A DNA stretch of 61,850 bases from Candidatus Acidiferrum sp. (GTDB lineage: Bacteria; Methylomirabilota; Methylomirabilia; Rokubacteriales; CSP1-6). The stretch covers positions 1 to 61,850 of the forward strand of contig DASQAL010000133.1 of the NCBI GenBank assembly GCA_035635775.1, read 5' to 3'. The notes below the pieces were generated by a model. That model was given only the letters and a program-made list of their open reading frames with translations, was not told where the DNA came from and ran no database searches. Positions 8,499 to 34,982 of this stretch are shown piece after piece. Both the position numbers and the translations under genes were made by a program. Within the stretch, counting starts at the first letter, position 1. Every line of letters begins with the position of its first letter.

Positions 8499-9406
8499 GC
8501 GCGGCCAGGGCCAAGGCGGGCGTCGAGCCCGCGCTGGGCATCATCGGAGGCAGCGGGCTCTACGAGATGGAGGGCGTCGAGGATCTGCGCTGGGTGCGCG
8601 TGCGCACGCCGTTCGGCGCGCCTTCGGATGCCTACTGCACGGGCCGGCTCGGCGACCGCCGGGTGATCTTCCTGCCGCGCCACGGCCGCGGCCATCGGGT
8701 CACGCCCACCGAGATCAACTACCGCGCCAATATCTACGGCCTCAAGGCTCTGGGGGCCCGCTGGGTCATCTCGGTGAGCGCGGTGGGCAGCATGAAGGAG
8801 GAGATCCACCCGCTGGATCTCGTGATTCCCGACCAGTTCTACGACCATACCAAGCGGCGGGTCTCGAGCTTCTTCGGCGACGGCATCGTCGGCCACGTCG
8901 GCATGGCCGAGCCGGTCTGCGCGGCGCTGGGCGACCTGCTCGAGACCGGGAGCCGGGAGGCGGGCGCGCGCGTGCACCGCGGCGGCACCTACATCTGCAT
9001 CGAGGGGCCGCAGTTCTCCACCAAGGGCGAGTCGCAGATCTACCGCCGCTGGGGCGTGTCGGTCATCGGGATGACGAACATGCCCGAGGCCAAGCTGGCC
9101 CGCGAGGCCGAGCTCTGCTACGCCACGCTGGCGCTGGCCACGGACTACGACGTGTGGCACGAGAGCCACGCGGCGGTGACGGTGGAGGCGGTCGTGGCCA
9201 ACCTGCGGAAGAACGTGGCCACCGCGAAGGTCGTCCTCCGGCGCGTCATCCCGCGCGTGGGCAAGGCCTGCGCCGGCGGCTGCGGCGATGCGCTGGCCAG
9301 CGCGGTGATCACCGATCCCAAGGCGTTCCCGCCGCGCACCCGCAAGCGGCTCGGCGTGCTGCTCGATCGCTACTTTCCCCCGAAGGGCAAGGGGCGCCGT
9401 GGCTGA
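8495..9406 (+). CDS. mtnP: S-methyl-5'-thioadenosine phosphorylase
   Basis: GIIGGSGLY, FLPRHGRGH, NYRANIY, EGPQFST, VIGMT, ATDYD; ATGA overlap with mtaB. Confidence 0.92.
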   Translation: MSAARAKAGVEPALGIIGGSGLYEMEGVEDLRWVRVRTPFGAPSDAYCTGRLGDRRVIFLPRHGRGHRVTPTEINYRANIYGLKALGARWVISVSAVGSMKEEIHPLDLVIPDQFYDHTKRRVSSFFGDGIVGHVGMAEPVCAALGDLLETGSREAGARVHRGGTYICIEGPQFSTKGESQIYRRWGVSVIGMTNMPEAKLAREAELCYATLALATDYDVWHESHAAVTVEAVVANLRKNVATAKVVLRRVIPRVGKACAGGCGDALASAVITDPKAFPPRTRKRLGVLLDRYFPPKGKGRRG

Positions 9407-10394
9407 TTCCCGCGAGCTCGACGTCGTCGGTATCGGCAATGCGCTGGTGGACGTGCTGACCCACGCCGAGGAGGGGTTCCTCGCCCGCCAGAGCCTGGTG
9501 AAGGGGACCATGCACCTGGTGGACGAGCCACGCGCCCGGGAGCTCTACGATGCGATGGGGCCCGGCGTGGAGATGTCGGGCGGCTCGGCCGCCAACACGG
9601 TGGTCGGCGTGGCCTCCTTCGGCGGGCGGGCGCACTACGTCGGCAAGGTCCGCGACGACCAGCTCGGCGAGGTATTCGGCCACGACCTGCGCGCCACCGG
9701 TGTGGGCTACGACACGCCCCGCGCCACCGAGGGCCCGCCCACCGGGCGCTGCCTCATCCTGGTCACGCCCGATGCCCAGCGCACCATGAGCACGTTCCTG
9801 GGCGCCTCGGTGCGGCTCGGCCCCGGCGACATCGACAAGGGCCTCATCGCCCGCGGCAAGATCCTCTACCTCGAGGGCTACCTCTTCGATCCGCCCGCGG
9901 CCCAGGAGGCCTTCCGGGCGGCCGCGGCCATGGCCCACGGCGCGGGGCGGAAGGTCTCGCTCACCCTGTCGGACCCGTTCTGCGTGGGACGGCATCGGAA
10001 GGCCTTCCTCGACTTGGTCGAGCATCACGTGGACATCCTCTTCGCGAACGAGGCGGAGATCTGCGCGCTGTACGAGGTCGGCGACTTCGACGCCGCCCTG
10101 GCCCGCGTGCGGGGGCACTGCGAGATCGCCGCGCTCACCCGGAGCGCCAAGGGCTCGGTGATCGTGGGCGGCGGGCAGGTGCACACGGTGGCCGCGCATC
10201 CGGTGAACGCGGTGGTGGACACGACGGGCGCGGGCGATCTCTACGCGGCCGGCGTGCTCTATGGCCTCAGCCAGGGCTTCGACCTGCCGACCTGCGGGCG
10301 GCTGGGCTCGCGGGCCGCCGCGGAGGTCATCGCCCACGTGGGCGCCCGGCCGATGGTGCCCCTGGGGCAGCTCACGGGACCCATTCTCGGGTAG
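9399..10394 (+). CDS. Adenosine kinase / PfkB carbohydrate kinase family
   Basis: GIGNALVD, GGSAANT, GKVRDDQLG, PTGRC, RTMSTFLG, FANEAE, DTTGAGD. Confidence 0.9.
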   Translation: MADSRELDVVGIGNALVDVLTHAEEGFLARQSLVKGTMHLVDEPRARELYDAMGPGVEMSGGSAANTVVGVASFGGRAHYVGKVRDDQLGEVFGHDLRATGVGYDTPRATEGPPTGRCLILVTPDAQRTMSTFLGASVRLGPGDIDKGLIARGKILYLEGYLFDPPAAQEAFRAAAAMAHGAGRKVSLTLSDPFCVGRHRKAFLDLVEHHVDILFANEAEICALYEVGDFDAALARVRGHCEIAALTRSAKGSVIVGGGQVHTVAAHPVNAVVDTTGAGDLYAAGVLYGLSQGFDLPTCGRLGSRAAAEVIAHVGARPMVPLGQLTGPILG

Positions 10395-10403
10395 GAGAGC
10401 GCG

Positions 10404-11237
10404 ATGGCGGATCACGAGGTGCTCGACGCCAAATACGACCGGCTGGTGGATCTCATCCGCGGGATGACCCGCGTGATCGTGGCCTTCTCCGGCGGCGTGG
10501 ACTCGACCTTCCTCGCCCGGGCCGCGAAGGACGCGCTCGGCGACGGCGCGACGCTGGTCACCGCCGATTCGGAGACCTACCCGGCCTCCGAGCTCGAGGA
10601 GACGCGGCGGCTGGCCACGCTGCTCGGCATGCGCCAGGAAGTCATCCGCACCCGCGAGCTCGACCGGCCCGAGTACGCGCGCAATGCGCCGGACCGGTGC
10701 TTCCACTGCAAGGAGGAGCTGTTCACGCGGCTCGAGCCGATCGCCCAGGCGGCGGGCAGCGCGCAGGTCATCTATGGCGCCAACATGGACGACCTCGGCG
10801 ATCACCGGCCCGGCATGAAGGCCGCGGAGGGCCGCGGCGTGCGCGCCCCGCTCATCGAAGCCCTGCTGTGGAAGGAGGAGATCCGGGCGCTCTCGAAGGA
10901 GCTCGGGCTGCCCACCTGGGACAAGCCGTCCTTCGCGTGCCTCTCGTCCCGCTTCCAGTACGGCGACCCCATCACCGCCGAGAAGCTCCGACGGATCGAC
11001 GACGCCGAAGCCTTCGTGCGGAGCCTGGGCTTCCGCCAGTTCCGGGTGCGCCATCACGACCGCCTGGCCCGCCTCGAGCTGGTCCCAGAGGAGATGCCGC
11101 GCCTCTGGCAGGAGGACCGGCACGGAGCGATCGTCCGACGCTTCCGCGAGCTGGGCTATCTCTACGTGACGCTCGACCTGCAGGGCTTCCGCAGCGGCAG
11201 CGCCAACGAGGTGCTGAAGTGGATCGGGAAAAAGTAA
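10404..11237 (+). CDS. larE: ATP-dependent sulfur transferase LarE (CxxC-C type)
   Basis: PP-loop AFSGGVDS, RCFHCK, DDLGDHRPG, WDKPSFACLSSRF, RVRHH, GFRSGS. Confidence 0.92.
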   Translation: MADHEVLDAKYDRLVDLIRGMTRVIVAFSGGVDSTFLARAAKDALGDGATLVTADSETYPASELEETRRLATLLGMRQEVIRTRELDRPEYARNAPDRCFHCKEELFTRLEPIAQAAGSAQVIYGANMDDLGDHRPGMKAAEGRGVRAPLIEALLWKEEIRALSKELGLPTWDKPSFACLSSRFQYGDPITAEKLRRIDDAEAFVRSLGFRQFRVRHHDRLARLELVPEEMPRLWQEDRHGAIVRRFRELGYLYVTLDLQGFRSGSANEVLKWIGKK

Positions 11238-11977
11238 GGGCGCTGCTGGAGGCCGTCGCGGCCGGCGCGCTCGCCCCCGAGCAGGCGCTGGCCCGGCTCC
11301 GCGCGCTGCCCGTCGAGGACCTGCGCTTCGCCCGCGTGGATCTGCACCGCTCGCTGCGCCAGGGCGTGCCCGAGGCCGTCTTCTGTCAGGGCAAGACGCC
11401 GGAGCAGGTGGTCGCCATCGTGCGGCGGCTGGCGGAGGGGCACGACAACGTGCTCGCCACGCGCGCCGAGCCGGCGGTGGTGACCGCGCTGCTCGCGAGT
11501 GGGCTGCCGTGCCAGGTGTACGAGGCGGCGCGAGTGGTCGTGGTCAAGCCGGTCGCGAGAGACGGCGTCGGGCTGATCGTCGTCGTCAGCGCGGGCACCT
11601 CCGATCTGCCGGTGGCCGAGGAGGCCGCGGTCACCGCGGAGGCGATGGGCAACCATGTCGAACGCGTGTTCGACTGCGGCGTGGCCGGCCTGCACCGGCT
11701 GGTGCCGCATCTCGACCGCCTCAACGAGGCGAACGCCATCATCGCGGTGGCTGGCATGGAGGGCGCGCTCCCCAGCGTCCTCGGGGGGCTGGTGGACCGC
11801 CCGGTGATCGCGGTGCCGACCAGCGTGGGCTACGGCGCCTCGTTCGGGGGCGTGGCCGCGCTGCTGGCCATGCTGAACTCCTGCGCCCCCGGCGTCTCGG
11901 TGGTCAATATCGACAACGGCTATGGCGCCGCCGCCCAGGCCAACCAGATCAATAAGCTCGCGTCCAAGCTCCGCTAG
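11219..11977 (+). CDS. larB: Nickel-pincer cofactor biosynthesis carboxylase/hydrolase LarB
   Basis: FARVDLHRSLRQGVPEAVFCQGKT, AGTSDLPVAEEA, DCGVAGLHRL, AGMEGALPSV, VPTSVGYG, VVNIDNGYGAA; GTG start overlaps larE end. Confidence 0.93.
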   Translation: MDREKVRALLEAVAAGALAPEQALARLRALPVEDLRFARVDLHRSLRQGVPEAVFCQGKTPEQVVAIVRRLAEGHDNVLATRAEPAVVTALLASGLPCQVYEAARVVVVKPVARDGVGLIVVVSAGTSDLPVAEEAAVTAEAMGNHVERVFDCGVAGLHRLVPHLDRLNEANAIIAVAGMEGALPSVLGGLVDRPVIAVPTSVGYGASFGGVAALLAMLNSCAPGVSVVNIDNGYGAAAQANQINKLASKLR

Positions 11978-11984
11978 CCCGCAT

Positions 11985-13220
11985 ATGAAGGTCGCGTATT
12001 TCGACTGCCCGAGCGGGGCGTCCGGGGACATGATCCTGGGCGCGCTGGTGGACGCGGGGGTGCCCTTCGAGACGCTCGAGCGCGAGCTGGCGGGCCTCGG
12101 CGTCGGGGGCTACCGCCTCGAGCGCCGCGAGGTGATGAAGGCGGGCTTCCGCGCCACCAAGATCGACGTGCACTTGGCCGGCTACGACCGAGACCCCGGT
12201 TACATGGGCCGCGCGGCGGACCCGGGCGCGCCCCGCCACGAGCCGGCCGGGCACCGCGGACTCGGCGAGATCCTCGGCATTCTCGAGCGGAGCCGGCTCG
12301 CGCCCGCGGTACGGGACATGGCCTCCCGCGTCTTCCGGCGGCTGGCCGAGGCCGAGGCGCGGGTGCACGGCACGACCCCCGAGCGGGTGCAATTCCACGA
12401 CGTGGGCGCGGTGGACGCCATCGTGGATGTAACCGGATCGTGCATCGGCCTCCATCTGCTCGGGATCGACGCCGTCCACTTCGGAGCCCTGCCGGTCGGG
12501 GGCGGGTTCATCGACGGTCCGCACGGCCGTATTCCGGTGCCCGGCCCGGCCACCGCCGAGCTGCTCAAGGGGTTCCCGACGCTGGACACCGGCATCCGCC
12601 GGGAGCTGGTAACCCCGACTGGGGCGGCGATCCTCACGACCCTGGCGGCCGGGGCGGGGGCGATGCCGGCGATGCGGGTCACCGCCGTCGGCTACGGCGC
12701 CGGCACCATGGACCTCGAGACCCCGAACGTGCTGCGGCTCTTCGTGGGCGAGGCGGCGGTGACCACGCCCGCCGAGACCATCGTCCAGGTCGAGACCACC
12801 GTGGACGACATGTCGCCCCAGCTTTACGAGCCCTTGCTGGAGCGCCTGCTCGAGGCCGGCGCGCTGGACGCCTGGCTCACCCCCGTCATCATGAAGCGCA
12901 GCCGGCCGGGCGTGGTCCTGACCGCCCTCTGCGAGCCGGGGCGGGTCGCCGACCTCTCGCGGCTGCTCTTCGAGGAGTCCTCCACCATCGGCGTGCGCTG
13001 GACCGCGTACCAGCGCAGCCGCCTCGATCGCGAGATGGTGCGGCTGGACACCGCCTACGGGCCGGTGACGTTCAAGGTCTCCCGGCTCGAGGGCCGGGTG
13101 GTCACGGTCACGCCGGAATTCGAGGAAGTACGCCGCATCGCGCGAGACAAGGGTCTCCCGGTCCGGGAGGTGCTCGAGCAGGCGCGCGTGGAGGGCCGCC
13201 GGCTCCTGACCACCCCTTGA
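11985..13220 (+). CDS. larC: Nickel insertase (cyclometallase) LarC
   Basis: YFDCPSGASGDM, AEARVHG, FHDVGAVDAIVD, HGRIPVPGPAT, ELVTPTGAA, ETTVDD, MKRSRPG, ESSTIGVR, PEFEE; single uninterrupted ORF. Confidence 0.93.
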   Translation: MKVAYFDCPSGASGDMILGALVDAGVPFETLERELAGLGVGGYRLERREVMKAGFRATKIDVHLAGYDRDPGYMGRAADPGAPRHEPAGHRGLGEILGILERSRLAPAVRDMASRVFRRLAEAEARVHGTTPERVQFHDVGAVDAIVDVTGSCIGLHLLGIDAVHFGALPVGGGFIDGPHGRIPVPGPATAELLKGFPTLDTGIRRELVTPTGAAILTTLAAGAGAMPAMRVTAVGYGAGTMDLETPNVLRLFVGEAAVTTPAETIVQVETTVDDMSPQLYEPLLERLLEAGALDAWLTPVIMKRSRPGVVLTALCEPGRVADLSRLLFEESSTIGVRWTAYQRSRLDREMVRLDTAYGPVTFKVSRLEGRVVTVTPEFEEVRRIARDKGLPVREVLEQARVEGRRLLTTP

Positions 13221-13245
13221 CACCGTCCCCGGCCCGGCATACGGT
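13217..13245 (+). promoter_or_regulatory. Sigma70 promoter of the cox-like operon
   Basis: TTGACA-N17-TACGGT; GGAGG RBS follows before GTG 13293. Confidence 0.7.
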
Positions 13246-13292
13246 TGGGGGCGCTTTCCCGGCCTCGGACCCTTCACTCAGGAGGTAGCGCG

Positions 13293-13766
<474 letters not shown>

Positions 13767-13775
13767 GGCGCGACC

Positions 13776-16136
<2,361 letters not shown>

Positions 16137-27108: not shown

Positions 27109-27987
27109 ATGCCGAGAGACTCGGACTACGAGGTTTTGGGCCTACGGCCCGGCGCCTCGCTCGACGAGGCCAAACAAGCGCACCGCGATCTTGTCAAGGT
27201 CTGGCATCCAGACCGTTTCTCGAACGATCCAAGGCTTCAAGCAAGAGCGCAAGAGAAGCTGCAAGAGATCAATGCGGCCAACGACCGAGTGCGGGTGCTT
27301 CTATCGTCGCCGGGTACGAGATCCCAACCCTCGAGCTCGCCACCTCCTCGACCACCGTCGTCACCGCCTCCCCCGCCTCGACCTGCCGCGCCTCCACCTC
27401 CGCGCCCGCCCCAATCCCCGTCTCAGGCAGGAATTCCGCGTAAGAATGGCGGACTGGTCGTCGTCGGGCTCGCCCTCGTCCTGGTATTGGGCTCGGTGAT
27501 CTGGCGCCATGCCTACCAAGAGGATAGTTCGGACACCCACGAGAGCCCGATCCCCCTCCGGCCGCCCCAGAGCGACACCACCCCCCTCGCTCACCCAGCT
27601 CCGCCGTCGAGCCCACCGACCGGCGGACCGTCAGCCCCATCGACGCCTCGGGTCGAGACGCCATCGGAAAAGGCTTCACCAGGCCAGAGGACACGCTTGG
27701 AAAAGTCGGCCGCTGATGTTGCCGCTGCGACGAAGAACTACCGCGCCGCACTTGAACGGGTCCTGGGCATCTACGAGCGCGAGCTGGCACGACGCGCCGA
27801 GCAAGTGGAGTTGCGGAGGGACCTGTACGAGCGTGGTGTACTGAAGAAGCAGGAGTTCGACGAAGGACTGCGCGCACACGCGGACGCTCGGAAGAATGTC
27901 GAGGACACTCGGCGGGCGATCGAGGACACTGACAGACTACTCCGAGAGACTGAGGAGGCCGAGGCACTCGCAAGGCGCCCGAAGTAG
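27109..27987 (+). CDS. J-domain (DnaJ-like) membrane protein with Pro-rich linkers and C-terminal coiled coil
   Basis: YEVLGL...AHRDLVKVWHPDRF...QEINAA (HPD motif); TM LVVVGLALVLVLGSVIW; codon usage looks less GC-biased than neighbours. Confidence 0.8.
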   Translation: MPRDSDYEVLGLRPGASLDEAKQAHRDLVKVWHPDRFSNDPRLQARAQEKLQEINAANDRVRVLLSSPGTRSQPSSSPPPRPPSSPPPPPRPAAPPPPRPPQSPSQAGIPRKNGGLVVVGLALVLVLGSVIWRHAYQEDSSDTHESPIPLRPPQSDTTPLAHPAPPSSPPTGGPSAPSTPRVETPSEKASPGQRTRLEKSAADVAAATKNYRAALERVLGIYERELARRAEQVELRRDLYERGVLKKQEFDEGLRAHADARKNVEDTRRAIEDTDRLLRETEEAEALARRPK

Positions 27988-28069: not shown

Positions 28070-29098
28070 TCAGGGCGCCTTGCCGACCAGGTTGAGTACG
28101 CGGCCGGCCCGCAGCACCGTCACCGTGATGGGCACGCCCGGGGTCAGGCGCTGCAGGTGCTCCCGCATCCGGTTGTAGTCGGCGAGGTTCCCGGTGGGGA
28201 TGCCGTCCACCGCGAGCAGGATGTCTCCGCCAACCACCAGCGTCTGGCCGTCGATCGTGGCGGTCCGGTTCCCGCCGCGAATCCCCGCCTCCTCGGCGGG
28301 CGAGCCCTTGGCCACGGTCTTGACCAGGAAGCCCTCGGGCTGGGGCAGGTTGAAGATCGCGGCGAGGTCGCCAGAGAGGGTGTGGCCCTCGAGTCCGCTC
28401 CAGATGGAGCGCCGGGCGAGCAGGAGATCCTTGGCGGTGTTGATCGTCACCACGAAGCCGAGCCCCTCGCTCCCGCCGCCCTTCGAGATGTTGTGGCTCA
28501 CGATCCCGATGACGTCGCCCGCGATGCTGAACAGGGGCCCGCCGGAGTTGCCGGTGTTGATGGTGGCGTCGGTCTGGAAGAACTCGGCCAGGGGGAAGGC
28601 GGGGTACACGCTGTTCGGCGGCCAGCGGGCACTGACGTAGCCGACGCTCAGCGAGTACGCGAGCCCGTACGGCGCGCCCACCACCAGCACCTGGTCGCCC
28701 ACCCGGACCGAGCTCGAGTTGGCGAGGCGGGCGACCTTGACGCCCGCGGGCACGCGCTCGAGCTGGAGCAGCGAGAGGTCGGCGGCGGGCTCGGAGGCGA
28801 CGACGCGCGCCTTCACGGCCTCGCCCCCGATGAACTCCACGGTGATCTCGTCCATCGCGTGAACGACGTGGGCCGCCGTCATCACCTTGCCGTCGGCCGA
28901 GATCAGCACACCGGAGCCGATCTCTCCGAAGCGGACCTGGCCGGACGCGGCCACGTCCCGCCCGCGAGAGCGGATCACGACGACGGAGGGGCTCACCCGG
29001 CGGAAGACGTCACCCACCGCCTGGGCCCCGGCCGACACCGGCTGCCCGAGCGTGACGAGGGTGGCGAGCAGGAGAAGCGCGATGAACCGAACGGTCAT
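28070..29098 (-). CDS. HtrA/DegP-like S1C serine protease with one PDZ domain
   Basis: Signal peptide; GSGVLI, TAAHVV, DLSLL, QTDATINTGNSGGPL, SPAEEAGI (PDZ); GGAGG RBS. Confidence 0.92.
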   Translation of the reverse strand: MTVRFIALLLLATLVTLGQPVSAGAQAVGDVFRRVSPSVVVIRSRGRDVAASGQVRFGEIGSGVLISADGKVMTAAHVVHAMDEITVEFIGGEAVKARVVASEPAADLSLLQLERVPAGVKVARLANSSSVRVGDQVLVVGAPYGLAYSLSVGYVSARWPPNSVYPAFPLAEFFQTDATINTGNSGGPLFSIAGDVIGIVSHNISKGGGSEGLGFVVTINTAKDLLLARRSIWSGLEGHTLSGDLAAIFNLPQPEGFLVKTVAKGSPAEEAGIRGGNRTATIDGQTLVVGGDILLAVDGIPTGNLADYNRMREHLQRLTPGVPITVTVLRAGRVLNLVGKAP

Positions 29099-31237: not shown

Positions 31238-31249
31238 GCGCGGAACCAG

Positions 31250-31285
31250 AAAAAGAAACGGCCCCGGGGGATCGCCCCGGGGCCG
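31250..31285 (-). terminator. Intrinsic terminator of the repeat-protein gene (possibly bidirectional)
   Basis: 11-bp stem CGGCCCCGGGG/CCCCGGGGCCG followed on the minus strand by TTTCTTTTT. Confidence 0.8.
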
Positions 31286-31305: not shown

Positions 31306-32073
31306 CTACTTCTTCAGCATCTCCATCGCCGCCTTGGCCTTGTCGGTCGCCAGCGTGGAGTTCCCGGCCTTGCAAGCCGCCTCGGCCTCGCTCACGAGAC
31401 CAGAAGCCTTCTTGAAGTCGGCAGAGCGGGGGGCCTGCACATCCTGGGCGCGCGGGGCCTGGACATCCTGGGCCCGAGGAGTCTGGATGTTCTGACCACG
31501 AGGAGCCTGCACGTCCTGGCCACGAGGAGCCTGCACTTCCTGACCACGCGGCGCCTGAATGTCCTGGCTACGCGGCGCCTGTACGTCCTGGGCGCGAGGA
31601 GCCTGGATGTTCTGACCGCGAGGAGCCTGCACGTCCTGGCTACGAGGAGCCTGAATGTCCTGACCACGCGGGGCCTGAATGTCCTGGCTGCGCGGGGCCT
31701 GCACATCCTGGCTACGCGGAGCCTGGATGTTCTGACCGCGAGGAGCCTGCACATCCTGGCTACGAGGAGCCTGCACATCCTGACCACGCGGGGCCTGGAT
31801 GTCCTGGCTCCGCGGCGCCTGCACGTCCTGTGAACGGGCGCCCGCCAGCGAGCGGGGAGCCTGGACGTCCTGGCTACGCGGGGCCTGCACGTCCTGCGAC
31901 CGAGCACCCGCCAGGGAGCGGGGCGCCTGCACGTCCTGGCTCTTGGCGGTCTGCGTCAGCATCGCCTTCGCCGACGCCACCTCGGGGGGGCAGGAGGTCT
32001 GCGCCATCCCGACCGTGGCCGAGAGGGAGAAGACCGTCACTACACTCATCGTCGCTGCAAGCAACTTTCTCAT
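31306..32073 (-). CDS. Secreted 255-aa protein: signal peptide, two-Cys helical shell, 20 octapeptide repeats [SGA]Q[DNE][VI]Q[AT]PR
   Basis: ATG 32073 with AAAGGA RBS; Sec signal MRKLLAATMSVVTVFSLSATVGMA; QTSCPPEVASAKAML...; repeat array; ...ASGLVSEAEAACKAGNSTLATDKAKAAMEMLKK. Confidence 0.9.
   Translation of the reverse strand: MRKLLAATMSVVTVFSLSATVGMAQTSCPPEVASAKAMLTQTAKSQDVQAPRSLAGARSQDVQAPRSQDVQAPRSLAGARSQDVQAPRSQDIQAPRGQDVQAPRSQDVQAPRGQNIQAPRSQDVQAPRSQDIQAPRGQDIQAPRSQDVQAPRGQNIQAPRAQDVQAPRSQDIQAPRGQEVQAPRGQDVQAPRGQNIQTPRAQDVQAPRAQDVQAPRSADFKKASGLVSEAEAACKAGNSTLATDKAKAAMEMLKK
31426..31941 (-). repeat. Coding tandem repeat: 20 x 24 nt units plus two 18-nt SLAGAR units
   Basis: Counted from the translation; units differ mainly at synonymous positions. 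Confidence 0.95.
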
Positions 32074-32165
32074 CGTTGTTTCCGTCCTTTCTGACTGCGT
32101 TCTCACTGCGTTTTCCACTGGGGTTCTTCTCCTGGCCCCTGGGGCCCCAACTCGCAGCCATAGGA

Positions 32166-32182
32166 TGCACCCGCGATGCCAG
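32166..32182 (-). promoter_or_regulatory. Candidate sigma54 (-24/-12) promoter of the repeat-protein gene
   Basis: CTGGCATCGCGGGTGCA: GG-N10-GC spacing exact, several mismatches to YTGGCACGRNNNTTGCW. Confidence 0.55.
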
Positions 32183-32210
32183 GGGATCTTCAGACTTACC
32201 TAGTCTTTAG

Positions 32211-32223
32211 TTTCAACATGTTA
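32211..32223 (+). promoter_or_regulatory. Candidate IHF-binding site
   Basis: TTTCAACATGTTA versus WATCAANNNNTTR (one mismatch), in an AT-rich patch about 30 nt upstream of the -24 element. Confidence 0.4.
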
Positions 32224-32331
32224 TGGCCCGTACCGCCACCCGGACCCTGGCACGACAAAGGCGTTCTGCCCGGCATGCCCCCGACAGATGACCCGGCAAA
32301 CTGTCTGGGGCTCTGGTACCGTGTAGCGGCA

Positions 32332-33684
32332 ATGAGCCCCTCCATCGGCAGATGCGCCGTAGGCGTCTGCGCGATCGCCTTCCTCCTTTATACGCTCGGT
32401 GGGTGCACGACGGCGCCGCCCGCGCCGGGATCGCGCCAGGGGCTGCCCGCGCCCATCCGGGAAGTGCTTCCCAACGGCATGCGGCTCATCATCCAGGAGC
32501 ACCGCGCCGCGGCCACTGTCGCGATTCATCTGTGGACTGGAGTCGGCGGGCGCGACGAGGCGGTCGGAGAGCGCGGCTTCTCGCACTTCGCGGAGCACAT
32601 GCTCTTCAAGGGCACCGAGACGCGGCCGCGCGGATTCGTCGAGCGCGACGTCGAGGCGGTGGGCGGGCGCACCAACGCGGGCACTTCCAACGACTACACC
32701 TTCTACTACCTGCTACTGCCCGCGACGCGCACCGCACAAGGGATCTCGACGATCGCGGACATGGTGCTGAACTCCGTCTTCGATGCCACCGAGCTGGCGC
32801 GCGAGCGCGACGTGGTCTTCGAGGAGGTGCGGCTCAACGAGGACAATCCGCGCGCGTCCCTGGGGCGCCAGCTCTACCATCTGCTCTACCAGGGCCATCC
32901 CTACGGCCGCCCCGTGCTGGGTGACGCGGCCGACCTGCGCGGCGCCACCCAGGAGACGCTGCGCGGCTTCTACAAGCGCCACTACGTGCCGGAGAACATG
33001 GCGCTGGTCGTGGTCGGTCCCGTCAACCCGGCGGAGGTCCGCGCCGCCGCGCTCGCCGTCTTCGGCGCGCTCCCCCGGGCCGGCTACACGCGGCAGCCGC
33101 TGCCACCCACGGTGGCGCTCGATGGCGTGCGCACGCGGTCGGTGGAGCGCCCCGAGCGACAGACGCAGCTCGGCCTCGCGTGGCTGGCGCCGCCGCTCGG
33201 TCATCCCGACATGCCCGCGGTGGACGTGCTCAGCCACATCCTGGGCGGCCCGCGCAGCTCCCGGCTCAACCAGGCGCTCCGGGAGAAGGCCCGGCTGGTC
33301 TCCGGGATCAGCGGCTGGTACGGCGCGCTCCAGGGCGCGGGCGCGGTCGGCGTCACCGCCCAGCTCGAGAGTGGGGACCATGAGGCGGTGGAGCGCGGCA
33401 TCCTGGCCGAGATCCGACGTATCCAGGCCGATGGGGTGACGCCGGAGGAGCTGGCCCGCGCGATCACCGCCTCCGAGGCCCAGCGCGAGTTCTCGCGCGA
33501 GACGGTGGAAGGCCTGGCCCTGGCGTACGGCCGCGCCGAGATCACCTGGAGCCTGGAGGCCGAGCGCGGCTACGTGGATCGCGTGCGCGCGGTGACGCGC
33601 GGGCAGGTGCAGGAGGCGGCGCGCCGCTACCTCACCGACTCCTACGCGCGGCTGGCCTTCGTGCCGCGGGGCCGCGCGCAGTGA
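32332..33684 (+). CDS. M16 (pitrilysin/insulinase) family zinc peptidase, catalytic subunit, predicted lipoprotein
   Basis: Lipobox LGGC; LPNGMRL; HFAEH (HxxEH); NAGTSNDYT; ERDVVFEE; HPYGRPVLG; YVPENM. TG-g-TACCGT -10 is 9 nt before the ATG. Confidence 0.9.
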   Translation: MSPSIGRCAVGVCAIAFLLYTLGGCTTAPPAPGSRQGLPAPIREVLPNGMRLIIQEHRAAATVAIHLWTGVGGRDEAVGERGFSHFAEHMLFKGTETRPRGFVERDVEAVGGRTNAGTSNDYTFYYLLLPATRTAQGISTIADMVLNSVFDATELARERDVVFEEVRLNEDNPRASLGRQLYHLLYQGHPYGRPVLGDAADLRGATQETLRGFYKRHYVPENMALVVVGPVNPAEVRAAALAVFGALPRAGYTRQPLPPTVALDGVRTRSVERPERQTQLGLAWLAPPLGHPDMPAVDVLSHILGGPRSSRLNQALREKARLVSGISGWYGALQGAGAVGVTAQLESGDHEAVERGILAEIRRIQADGVTPEELARAITASEAQREFSRETVEGLALAYGRAEITWSLEAERGYVDRVRAVTRGQVQEAARRYLTDSYARLAFVPRGRAQ

Positions 33685-34982
33685 GCCGGCGGGACGTGGC
33701 CGCGCTGGCGCTGGCCGTGGCCCTCGGGTGGGCCGGGGCCGGGAGTGCGGCGGCCCAGCCGGCTCGCCAGCAGCTCCCCGGCGGCCTCACCGTGCTGCTG
33801 CGCGAGAACACCGCGACCCCGGTGGCGGCGGCCTCGCTCTTCGTGCGGATGGGCTCGCGCTGGGAGACCGAGGACGACGCGGGCATCAGCCATCTGCTCC
33901 AGCAGGTGCTGGTCAAGGGGACCGAGCGCCGCTCGGCGCTCCAGATCGCGGAGACCGCGGAGAATCTGGGCGGCGGGATCTCCACGTCGGCCGACCTGGA
34001 CTACTCGGAGATCCGCGCCACCGCGCTCGCGCGAAACTGGAAAGCGATGCTCGAGCTGATCGCCGACGTCGCGCTCCGGCCCACGCTGCCCGCCGCCGAG
34101 ATCGACGGCGAGCGCAGCGCCACCCTGACCGCGCTCCGCAGCCGGCAGGACCAGCCGTTCTCCCTGGCCATGGATACGCTCATGAACCGCGTCTACGGGG
34201 ATCACCCGTACGGCCGCCCGATCCTGGGCCGGCCCGGCGCGCTGGAGCGCATCGACCGCGCCCGCCTGGTTGCGCATCACCAGCGCTTCTACCGTGGCCC
34301 GCGCATGATCCTGGCCGTGAGCGGTGACGTCGACGCGCGCCAGGTGATGGCGGAGGCGGCGCGCCTCTTCGCCGACGCCCCCGCGGGCCCCGCGGAGGCC
34401 GAGCCCACGCTCCCCGCGGCGGCGGCGCGCGCGGACCGCACCGTGATCGTGAAGCCGTCGGCCCAGGCGCAGGTCCTGGCCGGCTTCCTCGCCCCGCCCA
34501 CCTCGCACGCCGACTATGCGGCGGTGAAGGTGCTGGCCACCGCGCTGGGCGGGGGCATGGCCGCGCGGCTCTTCACCGAGGTGCGCGACAAGCAGGGCCT
34601 GGCCTACTCGACGGGCGGCGCCTACCCGTCGCGTCTGGGCCCGGGCGTGCTCTTCACCCAGCTCGGCACCGCGCCGGCCAACCAGACCCGGGCGGAAGCC
34701 GCGATGCTGGGGGAGCTCGAGCGCATCCGCCGCGATCCCCTGAGCCCGCCCGAGCTCGCCCGCGCCAAGGGGTACCTGCTCGGGCAGTTCGCGCTGGACC
34801 GGCGCACCAACGCGCGGCTGGCCTGGTACGACGCCTTCTTCGAGGCGCTCGGGGTCGGGCCCGGATTCGCCGAGCGCTACGAGCGCGCGGTGGAGGCGGT
34901 GACGGTCGAGGACGTGCAGCGGGTCGCGCGGACCTACCTGAGCGCGCCCACCGTGGTCACGCTCGGCCCCGCGGCGCCGTAG
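33681..34982 (+). CDS. M16 family peptidase, non-catalytic partner subunit, predicted exported
   Basis: Signal-like N-terminus; HLLQQ in place of HxxEH; HPYGRP; LGGGMAARLFTEVRDKQGLAYS; GTGA overlap with the catalytic subunit. Confidence 0.88.
   Translation: MSRRDVAALALAVALGWAGAGSAAAQPARQQLPGGLTVLLRENTATPVAAASLFVRMGSRWETEDDAGISHLLQQVLVKGTERRSALQIAETAENLGGGISTSADLDYSEIRATALARNWKAMLELIADVALRPTLPAAEIDGERSATLTALRSRQDQPFSLAMDTLMNRVYGDHPYGRPILGRPGALERIDRARLVAHHQRFYRGPRMILAVSGDVDARQVMAEAARLFADAPAGPAEAEPTLPAAAARADRTVIVKPSAQAQVLAGFLAPPTSHADYAAVKVLATALGGGMAARLFTEVRDKQGLAYSTGGAYPSRLGPGVLFTQLGTAPANQTRAEAAMLGELERIRRDPLSPPELARAKGYLLGQFALDRRTNARLAWYDAFFEALGVGPGFAERYERAVEAVTVEDVQRVARTYLSAPTVVTLGPAAP

Follow-up and report, generated by a model that had tools for sequence, protein, structure and literature searches.

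Several described systems share part of the layout considered in this work. ZraP, Spy and CpxP of Enterobacteria are small, Sec-exported, alpha-helical periplasmic proteins that are strongly inducible, and zraP is read from a ZraR-dependent sigma-54 promoter that shares a divergent intergenic region with its upstream activator sites. KEX2 repeat proteins, the yeast alpha-factor precursor and prohormones carry a signal peptide and tandem, near-identical short units ending in basic residues, and proinsulin has a disulfide-held shell around an excisable segment. Repeated short units in one precursor also characterize multi-core ribosomally synthesized and post-translationally modified peptides (RiPPs) such as cyanobactins, thiovarsolins and microviridins. 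Hydrophilins, late embryogenesis abundant (LEA)-type proteins and the Pro-rich spacer of TonB consist of hydrophilic, proline-containing low-complexity repeats with predicted disorder and length polymorphism, and high-molecular-weight (HMW) glutenin joins a signal peptide and Cys-bearing N- and C-terminal domains to a long Gln/Pro-rich core of short repeats. Here we describe a gene that resembles each of these in part, located at 31306..32073 on the minus strand of a 61,850-nucleotide stretch (hereafter the window) of contig DASQAL010000133.1 from Candidatus Acidiferrum sp. (Methylomirabilota; Rokubacteriales). It encodes a secreted protein with a long array of Arg-terminated octapeptides, which we refer to as the repeat-loop protein.

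The repeat-loop protein has no sequence or fold match to ZraP, Spy or CpxP and no LTxxQ motif, whereas those proteins lack a tandem-repeat loop and a conserved Cys pair; unlike zraP, moreover, the gene has no activator gene beside it. Kexin-type precursors are cut at dibasic KR/RR sites by a kexin of the secretory pathway, whereas the units found here end in a single Arg after Pro, are destined for a bacterial periplasm, contain no dibasic sites and are not linked to a kexin-like gene; the proinsulin layout fits as an idea. RiPP precursors are cytoplasmic and carry a leader peptide with modifying enzymes encoded nearby, in contrast to a protein with a Sec signal; the likeness extends to a precursor-like open reading frame (ORF) and a weak thiovarsolin match, and no RiPP modifying or maturation enzyme lies next to the gene, whose neighbours are an M16 pair, a rhomboid protein, HtrA, HIT and PhnCE, or at the paralog loci, which hold unrelated genes. 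With hydrophilins and LEA-type proteins it shares high expression in soil, sediment and ice; it differs from them and from Pro-rich spacers in having no homology, in its far more strictly conserved residues, and in a predicted closed loop between packed helices in place of a linear tether. The resemblance to HMW glutenin is an analogy of layout only, across kingdoms and with other repeat sequences, and the repeat-loop protein gives no sign of polymerization or storage. A mini-bundle with a probable disulfide clasp, a closed loop that can expand by Arg-terminated units and a conserved sigma-54 promoter preceded by paired upstream sites have, to the best of our knowledge, not been described together for any protein.

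Our preferred reading, held tentatively and at somewhat short of an even chance, is that of an intact, inducible and abundant disordered protein that protects the envelope or fills space. We rank a multi-peptide precursor second and a multivalent motif scaffold third, with a polymer, a beta-helix and a storage protein lower. The gene has a sigma-54 promoter that needs an enhancer-binding activator. Its product is predicted to be exported by Sec and to fold into a small three-helix bundle, in which the N-terminal helix packs on a C-terminal hairpin and a Cys28-Cys234 disulfide probably holds one end together. The 172-residue array would begin and finish at the opposite end of the bundle, making it a closed disordered loop. 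On the preferred reading, gain and loss of units would set the effective size of this loop, the intact protein would serve as an envelope protectant or space filler, hydrophilin-like or Spy/ZraP-like in function without homology to either, and the conserved ..AP-R motif would aid recognition or solubility instead of marking a cleavage site. The gene and the parts of its product are as follows.

31306..32073, minus strand: coding sequence of the repeat-loop gene, 255 codons plus a TAG stop, with an ATG start.
32074..32157, minus strand: 5' untranslated region, with a transcription start site (TSS) predicted near 32156 and a Shine-Dalgarno sequence at 32089-32085.
32002..32073, minus strand: Sec-type signal peptide, residues 1-24, with cleavage predicted from the sequence after G-M-A and before Q.
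31942..32001, minus strand: N-terminal shell helix, residues 25-44, with Cys28 and the motif C-P-[PA]-E-[VL]..AK.ML.
31426..31941, minus strand: repeat array, residues 45-216, 20 octapeptides and 2 SLAGAR units, predicted to be disordered.
31309..31425, minus strand: C-terminal helical hairpin, residues 217-255, with Cys234-Lys235 and the motif LV.EAEAACK.G[DN].

The ATG at 32073 is favoured over an alternative, longer GTG start at 32118 on the same strand, because the starts of homologues match it and an AAGGA ribosome-binding site (32089-32085) stands in front. GC content is about 70% across the whole window, and long ORFs in other frames also cover the repeats, as by-products of the repetition. 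A real repeat protein had been claimed by a sequence-only reading of this DNA, and a recount by regular expressions returned the same frame with exactly 20 [SGA]Q[DNE][VI]Q[AT]PR units between residues 45 and 216, SLAGAR units at residues 53 and 75, and Cys28 and Cys234 as the only cysteines. Read from the sequence, the signal peptide consists of MRK, an 18-residue hydrophobic stretch and the G-M-A preceding Q; it is kept in homologues, where A-x-A-type sites fall 2-5 residues ahead of the invariant Cys. A Braun-type lipoprotein was considered and rejected, since there is no lipobox ([LVI][ASTVI][GAS]C) and homologues have S, T, P, K, Q or N directly ahead of the conserved Cys.

Modelling with AlphaFold2 (AF2) and the family alignment placed three helices at a predicted local distance difference test (pLDDT) score of 92-96, namely residues 30-48 (about 92) and residues 216-235 and 239-254 (93-96), and left the array as coil with pLDDT below 50. 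A natural 95-residue member with a single unit gave the same three helices, and the shell is accordingly predicted with confidence to be a small three-helix bundle. These helices and the conserved signal agree with the layout first proposed for the protein, an exported two-Cys helical shell around a repeat loop. Cys28, invariant in three family alignments, lies just ahead of helix 1, and the likewise invariant Cys234 lies at the end of helix 2, beside the turn; helix 1 running antiparallel to helix 2 would bring both cysteines together at one end of the bundle. From this geometry and the invariance of the cysteines, we infer an intramolecular disulfide that closes the loop. The same facts can be read in another way, with the N-terminal helix pairing with the C-terminal hairpin of the next molecule in a disulfide-linked or domain-swapped polymer, that is, an elastic Gln/Pro-rich network in the periplasm or outside the cell, for which HMW glutenin would be the parallel in layout. 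Each terminal element has one invariant Cys, the long flexible linker would allow swapping, expression is very high, and AF2 cannot separate intra- from intermolecular packing. Nevertheless, minimal members with linkers of 10-20 residues keep the same bundle, which favours intramolecular packing, and no sign of polymers was seen; we regard such a network as improbable.

The array itself is periodic far beyond chance. Tandem Repeats Finder reported, for 31430-31941, a 24-nt period (16.6 copies, score 355) and a higher-order period of 120 nt, or five units (3.9 copies, score 605). Its only basic residues are the 22 unit-final Arg, Lys being absent, and these stand beside 17 acidic residues (16 D and 1 E) and 20 Pro among 172 residues. 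One acid and one Arg occur in 17 of the 20 octapeptides, the three GQNIQ[AT]PR and two SLAGAR units being acid-free, so that the loop is proline-kinked and nearly charge-balanced. Comparison of the 20 units with each other gave a pS of 0.58, near saturation, a pN of 0.12 and a dN/dS of about 0.11; owing to this low ratio at near-saturated synonymous divergence, the repeat must be considered selected as a peptide, with its units under purifying selection. Loss of the terminal Arg in homologues had been named beforehand as one outcome that would speak against a cleavable array, and the Arg proved to be retained after Q[AST]P in 2136 of 2172 cases from 166 distinct family proteins (98% of units), and in divergent arrays as well. 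The octamer profile of these 166 proteins reads G/S/A, Q (97%), D/E (93%), V/I/L (88%), Q (99.5%), A/S (98%), P (99%) and R; within the main clade, Q2, Q5, P7 and R8 are conserved at 97%, 99.5%, 99% and 99.7%, respectively. Units of 7 and 9 residues differ solely by the 0-2 small residues behind the Arg, and the residue following QxP-R in the family is G, S or A. Positions 3 and 4 are uniform inside one protein and varied between proteins (QELQAPR, QDTQAPR, QDAQAPR, QEQQAPR), and the divergent unit types GENPQAAR, GQDAQTAR, SGGESAAPR/SREANAPR, GSVEAPR and VSGTGDVQAPR are all Arg-final, mostly with one acid.

Such a pattern could belong to a multi-core precursor, in which a periplasmic endopeptidase would cut after each ..AP-R to release about 20 near-identical octapeptides, possibly trimmed to pyroglutamate forms, and leave the N-terminal helix and the C-terminal hairpin joined by the disulfide. 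Of all residues in the family the terminal Arg is conserved best, with a small one (G, S or A) behind it, the window array is otherwise free of basic residues, and positions 3-4 are homogenized per protein in the manner of a specificity core between fixed sites. In addition, a clasp of two invariant cysteines would be most useful if the loop were excised, and the mRNA is very abundant. Against these points, the spacer behind the Arg varies by 0-2 residues, members with zero or one unit exist, and none of the results directly supports Arg-specific cleavage; nor do we know of any precedent for a Sec-exported multi-core peptide precursor in diderm bacteria. We consider cleavage of this kind unlikely, if the foremost of the alternatives. 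Slightly more doubtful is its full form, a sigma-54-induced polyprotein cut by an Arg-directed endopeptidase into dozens of lineage-specific octapeptides with ..QAPR ends and variable positions 3-4, which would act as diffusible signals or effectors and leave a disulfide-linked two-chain shell. If true, it would constitute a prohormone-like multi-copy peptide system, categorically new for bacteria.

Purifying selection at the level of the motif, with a spacer of 0-2 residues, would equally suit a repeated linear motif in a disordered array that leaves every copy accessible. A partner such as a periplasmic protease, an envelope polymer or a PDZ domain could then bind or modify Q[DE][VIL]Q[AS]PR, which would make the protein an adaptor, decoy or regulator of high avidity, much as CpxP acts with DegP. 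We give such a scaffold a low probability, below that of the precursor. Members with zero or one unit retain the shell together with a conserved P-[RK]-S-L-[AS]-G-A-[RK] linker, so that the array is an expansion of the linker motif and the shell functions without it.

A sigma-70 consensus scan of the region upstream of the gene found no promoter, and it was this absence that led the search to a sigma-54 element. The regulatory features are listed here.

32165..32181, minus strand: sigma-54 promoter TGGCAT-CGCGG-GTGCAT, with the -24 GG at 32180/32179 and the -12 GC at 32168/32167.
32209..32221, minus strand: site resembling that of integration host factor (IHF), TAACATGTTGAAA, inside an AT-rich patch of a 70% GC genome.
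32260..32270, minus strand: proximal upstream activator-type site GGCAGAACGCC, at about -114 from the predicted TSS.
32295..32305, minus strand: distal upstream activator-type site GACAGTTTGCC, with one mismatch to GGCA-N3-TGCC, at about -149 from the predicted TSS.
31249..31285, minus strand: intrinsic terminator behind the stop codon, a hairpin (31285-31259) of 11 G-C pairs with a 5-nt loop, followed by TTTCTTTTTC.

Sigma-54 promoters follow the consensus and spacing TGGCAC-N5-TTGCW, and on this comparison we assign TGGCAT-CGCGG-GTGCAT as a -24/-12 element. The T-G-G..A and T-G-C columns of the TGG.A...TGC block are invariant in 12 orthologue upstream regions, and 48 of 62 loci show the pattern 77-168 nt ahead of the start codon, where the background would give 0.011 per 300 nt. 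It has a single match in the whole window on both strands, and about two-thirds of its matches in the loci examined sit upstream of a family gene. Of 47 loci, 45 have the paired 11-mers (GGCA-N3-YGYC), spaced by 35 bp, at constant positions of about -100/-111 and -133/-146, and 28 have both sites; the background is 0.054 per 220 nt. The IHF consensus is YAANNNNTTGATW; the IHF-like site is conserved in the upstream alignment A4, a perfect TAACATATTGATA is present in loci L014 and L017, and at the sequence level the YAANNNNTTGAWW site is placed between the paired sites and the promoter. Taken as sequence elements, the paired sites, the IHF-like site and the -24/-12 element are arranged in the way that is classic for promoters dependent on an enhancer-binding protein. 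GAFTGA or ESGTGKE, the marks of such a protein, were found neither in the window nor within 10 kb on either side of any locus, so the activator would have to be encoded elsewhere. All 17 orthologues examined have a hairpin equivalent to the terminator behind the stop codon.

Sigma-54 often controls nitrogen genes, and an array rich in the nitrogen of Gln and Arg could be taken for a nitrogen store. Induction of the sigma-54/NtrC type, however, normally accompanies nitrogen limitation, and storage is unlikely. A second sigma-54-type element, TGGCATCCACGTTGCT, was noticed in locus L005 at 11623 (minus strand), 76 nt upstream of a gene for a 208-residue protein that lies a few genes past HtrA and HIT, and it recurs in L044 at 13604 (minus strand); the L005 gene may belong to the same or to another sigma-54 regulon.

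Transcription was followed in four small metatranscriptomes (156-382 Mb; freshwater sediment, sediment and ice), the runs coming from different studies. RNA contigs matched both unique ends of the gene, 5' and 3', at 99-100% identity and with k-mer depths of 200-770. Depth was 0-29 on the flanks and, apart from cross-matching at its conserved catalytic motif, 0-6 on HtrA, a gene about 2 kb away. Upstream, contigs ended at 32157 (X26), 32139 (X25) and 32134 (X27), and depth collapsed past 32152; these ends agree with a start about 12 nt past the -12 GC, approximately so, being contig ends rather than mapped 5' ends. Downstream, they stopped near 31266, matching the terminator. The gene is transcribed as a monocistronic mRNA about 100-fold deeper than its neighbours, by the crude measure of contig depth, and this difference of about two orders of magnitude was reproduced in all four runs. 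The locus is present in dozens of soil metagenomes. Rokubacteria are abundant, uncultured bacteria of soil and subsurface of which almost no gene product has been studied, and in several environments this orphan family ranks with the most strongly transcribed of their genes.

Of 5.8 billion proteins searched, 1356 matched, and the best 120 of these share one layout: a signal peptide, 2-5 residues, C-P-[PA]-E-[VL]..AK.ML, n units and ..L[VI].EAEAACK.G[DN]...KA..A...LK. The source names of these 120 are all 'hypothetical protein', from Rokubacteria/Methylomirabilota metagenome-assembled genomes (MAGs). A scan of one genome per species gave 171 relatives, of which the best 80 are nearly all from Rokubacteria; several genomes hold 2-5 paralogs, and tandem pairs occur at two loci. 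Searching with the shell alone had been proposed in the sequence-only reading, and a shell profile built from natural minimal members found, in 1.84 billion proteins, 305 representatives at 50% identity. The unit number among relatives ranges from 0 to 34. As judged by these matches, the family is real, conserved and almost entirely limited to one phylum, Rokubacteria.

Some family loci sit in bins of unrelated phyla, namely L016 and L038 (Nitrosocosmicus/Nitrosotalea, archaea), L018 and L019 (Verrucomicrobiia), L011, L013 and L084, and others (L010, L063, L071, L079 and L081) in a Deferrimicrobiaceae bin. Because some of them (L013, L018) share the Rokubacterial gene order, these are most likely mis-binned contigs in a soil MAG catalogue. 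Short-read contigs end inside the array in L010, L020, L024, L046, L055, L058, L065, L067, L073, L074 and L078; since the array breaks or collapses short-read assemblies, unit counts of individual MAGs are uncertain, and very short arrays may be assembly collapses. In the long-read MAGs of the MFD series (L015, L026, L036, L039, L042 and L051, at about 10000-11300 in each), the gene is split into two overlapping frames within the array, which probably reflects sequencing frameshifts in the repeat and not pseudogenes.

Searches of Pfam and NCBIfam with the full protein, the shell alone and minimal members brought only sub-threshold or periodicity-driven matches, to Gp5_trimer_C, cornifin, kisspeptin and thiovarsolin. 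The thiovarsolin match (NF033878) scored 20.9 bits against a cut-off of 35, whereas Gp5_trimer_C (PF22178) was borderline for the full protein at 32.3 bits against 30.9, driven by the 8-residue periodicity, and is also found in the precomputed annotations of a few homologues. This match is the basis for regarding the array as a regular octapeptide beta-helix, as in the C-terminal domain of T4 gp5 or in ice-nucleation proteins. The VxGxxxxx pattern of that domain is absent, however, every octapeptide contains a Pro, units of 7, 8 and 9 residues and the SLAGAR interruptions break the register, AF2 returned a low-scoring coil instead of a regular beta-helix, and both fold searches ended without a match; a beta-helix is thus very improbable. 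Against PDB sequences, the shell profile matched the MIT-domain helix pair of Atg38 (E 8e-6) and weakly SmbP (E 0.31), the former indicating merely a generic TPR/MIT-like hairpin, and Foldseek comparison of both AF2 models with the PDB gave nothing below E 0.5. An Rfam scan of the gene region and its untranslated regions produced no score near a gathering threshold. In the literature searched, the unit peptides were not found, nor was anything relevant on rokubacterial repeat, periplasmic or highly expressed hypothetical proteins or on disordered periplasmic octapeptide repeats. The early statement that the protein belongs to no named family holds through the Pfam, NCBIfam, PDB sequence and fold searches, and we describe the family, without name, structure or paper in these sources and the literature, as one of inducible, secreted, tandem-repeat disordered proteins.

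Clustering of the ORFs of 86 loci defined a main orthologue group of roughly 58-60 loci, in which the order is FtsJ/TlyA, rhomboid, M16 and M16, a divergent gap of 100-300 bp, the repeat gene, 55-106 bp, an HtrA-like protease and HIT; a PhnC/PhnE pair is inserted in the window and about 18 other loci. The two flanking protease features are these.

32176..34982, plus strand: divergent M16 peptidase pair (Pfam), adjoining the gene in 58 of 86 loci.
28070..29098, minus strand: HtrA/Do-family serine protease with a PDZ domain (Pfam and NCBIfam).

As read from the translations, the first M16 protein carries the zinc motif HFAEH and a lipobox-like LGGC, and the second a degenerate HLLQQ and a signal peptide. 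This points to a heterodimer in the periplasm, with an active subunit paired to an inactive one as in the mitochondrial processing peptidase. That peptidase reads an Arg near the scissile bond, and a pair of this type flanking the main orthologue in most loci, together with HtrA, is a further point for a cleaved precursor. Yet both proteases are transcribed separately from the gene and at about 100-fold lower levels, and HtrA proteases are not Arg-specific; the window HtrA shows the canonical QTDAxINxGNSGGP motif and is therefore not an Asp189 trypsin-type, Arg-specific enzyme. In about 30 loci HtrA is the next gene downstream and on the same strand, but an operon of the two genes was ruled out, because a terminator and, past it, a TAGAAT-type -10 box separate them in every orthologue examined. 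For a scaffold, the conserved synteny with a PDZ-bearing HtrA and the M16 pair in the main orthologue group would supply candidate partners. The block also holds NAD kinase, RecN and SecA beside FtsJ/TlyA, so that the synteny may be no more than inherited gene order of a housekeeping core region, and the paralogs are unlinked to HtrA and M16 genes. The annotated M16 start, an ATG at 32176, would overlap the sigma-54 promoter and is for this reason probably too far upstream, an alternative start (MSPSIGRC..) at about 32332 being likelier.

The paralogs lie in other contexts. One group is found directly downstream of RtcB/archease (L002/L003 at 7944, L038 at 9947, L071 at 9315 and L083 at 9943) with a perfect TGGCAC-N5-TTGCA 54-58 nt before the ATG and without GGCA-N3-TGCC upstream sites; the genes that follow it, for DUF2267, CBS, a DksA-type zinc finger, cytochrome c, Usp and PFK, together look like a stress or dormancy cluster. 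A third paralog group has a sigma-70-like TTGACC...TATACT in place of the sigma-54 element. Further paralogs neighbour GroES/EL or genes for cupin/NmrA, an aminotransferase, DUF2071, VKOR, acyl-CoA dehydrogenase, FecR, isochorismatase and an AMP-ligase, and with neighbours so heterogeneous a dedicated partner gene was ruled out. No protease, exporter, transporter, receptor or maturation enzyme was seen to travel with the family at the paralog loci examined, which again speaks against a processed precursor. In L021, a gene of the disulfide-forming VKOR family (8814-9467) stands just upstream of a tandem pair of family genes (10001-13898); the adjacency may be due to chance, though the family has an invariant Cys pair.

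Weighing these results, we favour an intact protein because the shell is predicted at pLDDT above 90 and the array as coil, with the same helices in a one-unit member; because the unit number varies from 0 to 34 and the shell exists without an array; and because the composition of the array is near charge-balanced, the divergent units being Arg-final with mostly one acid. The conserved regulation by sigma-54, IHF-like and paired sites, RtcB-linked paralogs included, and the depth of 200-770 argue in the same direction, as do the location of paralogs near GroES/EL, Usp, CBS, DksA-type zinc finger and RtcB genes and the fact that no maturation enzyme, transporter or receptor is co-inherited. Several points weigh against this preference. 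The case for the disulfide consists of cysteine invariance and helix geometry, and the stress association of the paralogs is anecdotal. With 22 Arg against 17 acids, the array bears a small net positive charge and is not strictly neutral. In Pfam, NCBIfam, PDB-profile and Foldseek searches, the protein showed no homology to LEA proteins, to Spy/CpxP/ZraP or to chaperones of any family; profile or fold similarity to Spy/CpxP/ZraP and LTxxQ motifs were likewise not found with the full protein, the isolated shell or minimal members. Above all, conservation of single residues is tighter than a spacer selected for composition alone would require; this is the main fact that an intact protein explains poorly, and it keeps the cleavage and binding-motif readings alive. 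The readable regulatory architecture and a simple, expressible protein make three questions testable, namely the signal of the activator, the existence of a prohormone-style polyprotein in the periplasm and the function of a closed loop of variable length, and the conserved promoter with its paired upstream sites offers a handle on a Rokubacterial regulon from metagenomes.

Two further ORFs were noted in passing. Locus L004 encodes, at 13352-13939, a 195-residue protein with matches to collagen repeats (PF01391) and OmpA (PF00691), which may be a binder of peptidoglycan that has a collagen-like spacer; the organism also has a family paralog. In the window, an ORF at 27109-27987 on the plus strand combines a J-domain-like N-terminus (..YEVLGL..HPDRF..) with a long stretch rich in Pro and Ser, a hydrophobic segment and, at the C-terminus, a charged helix.

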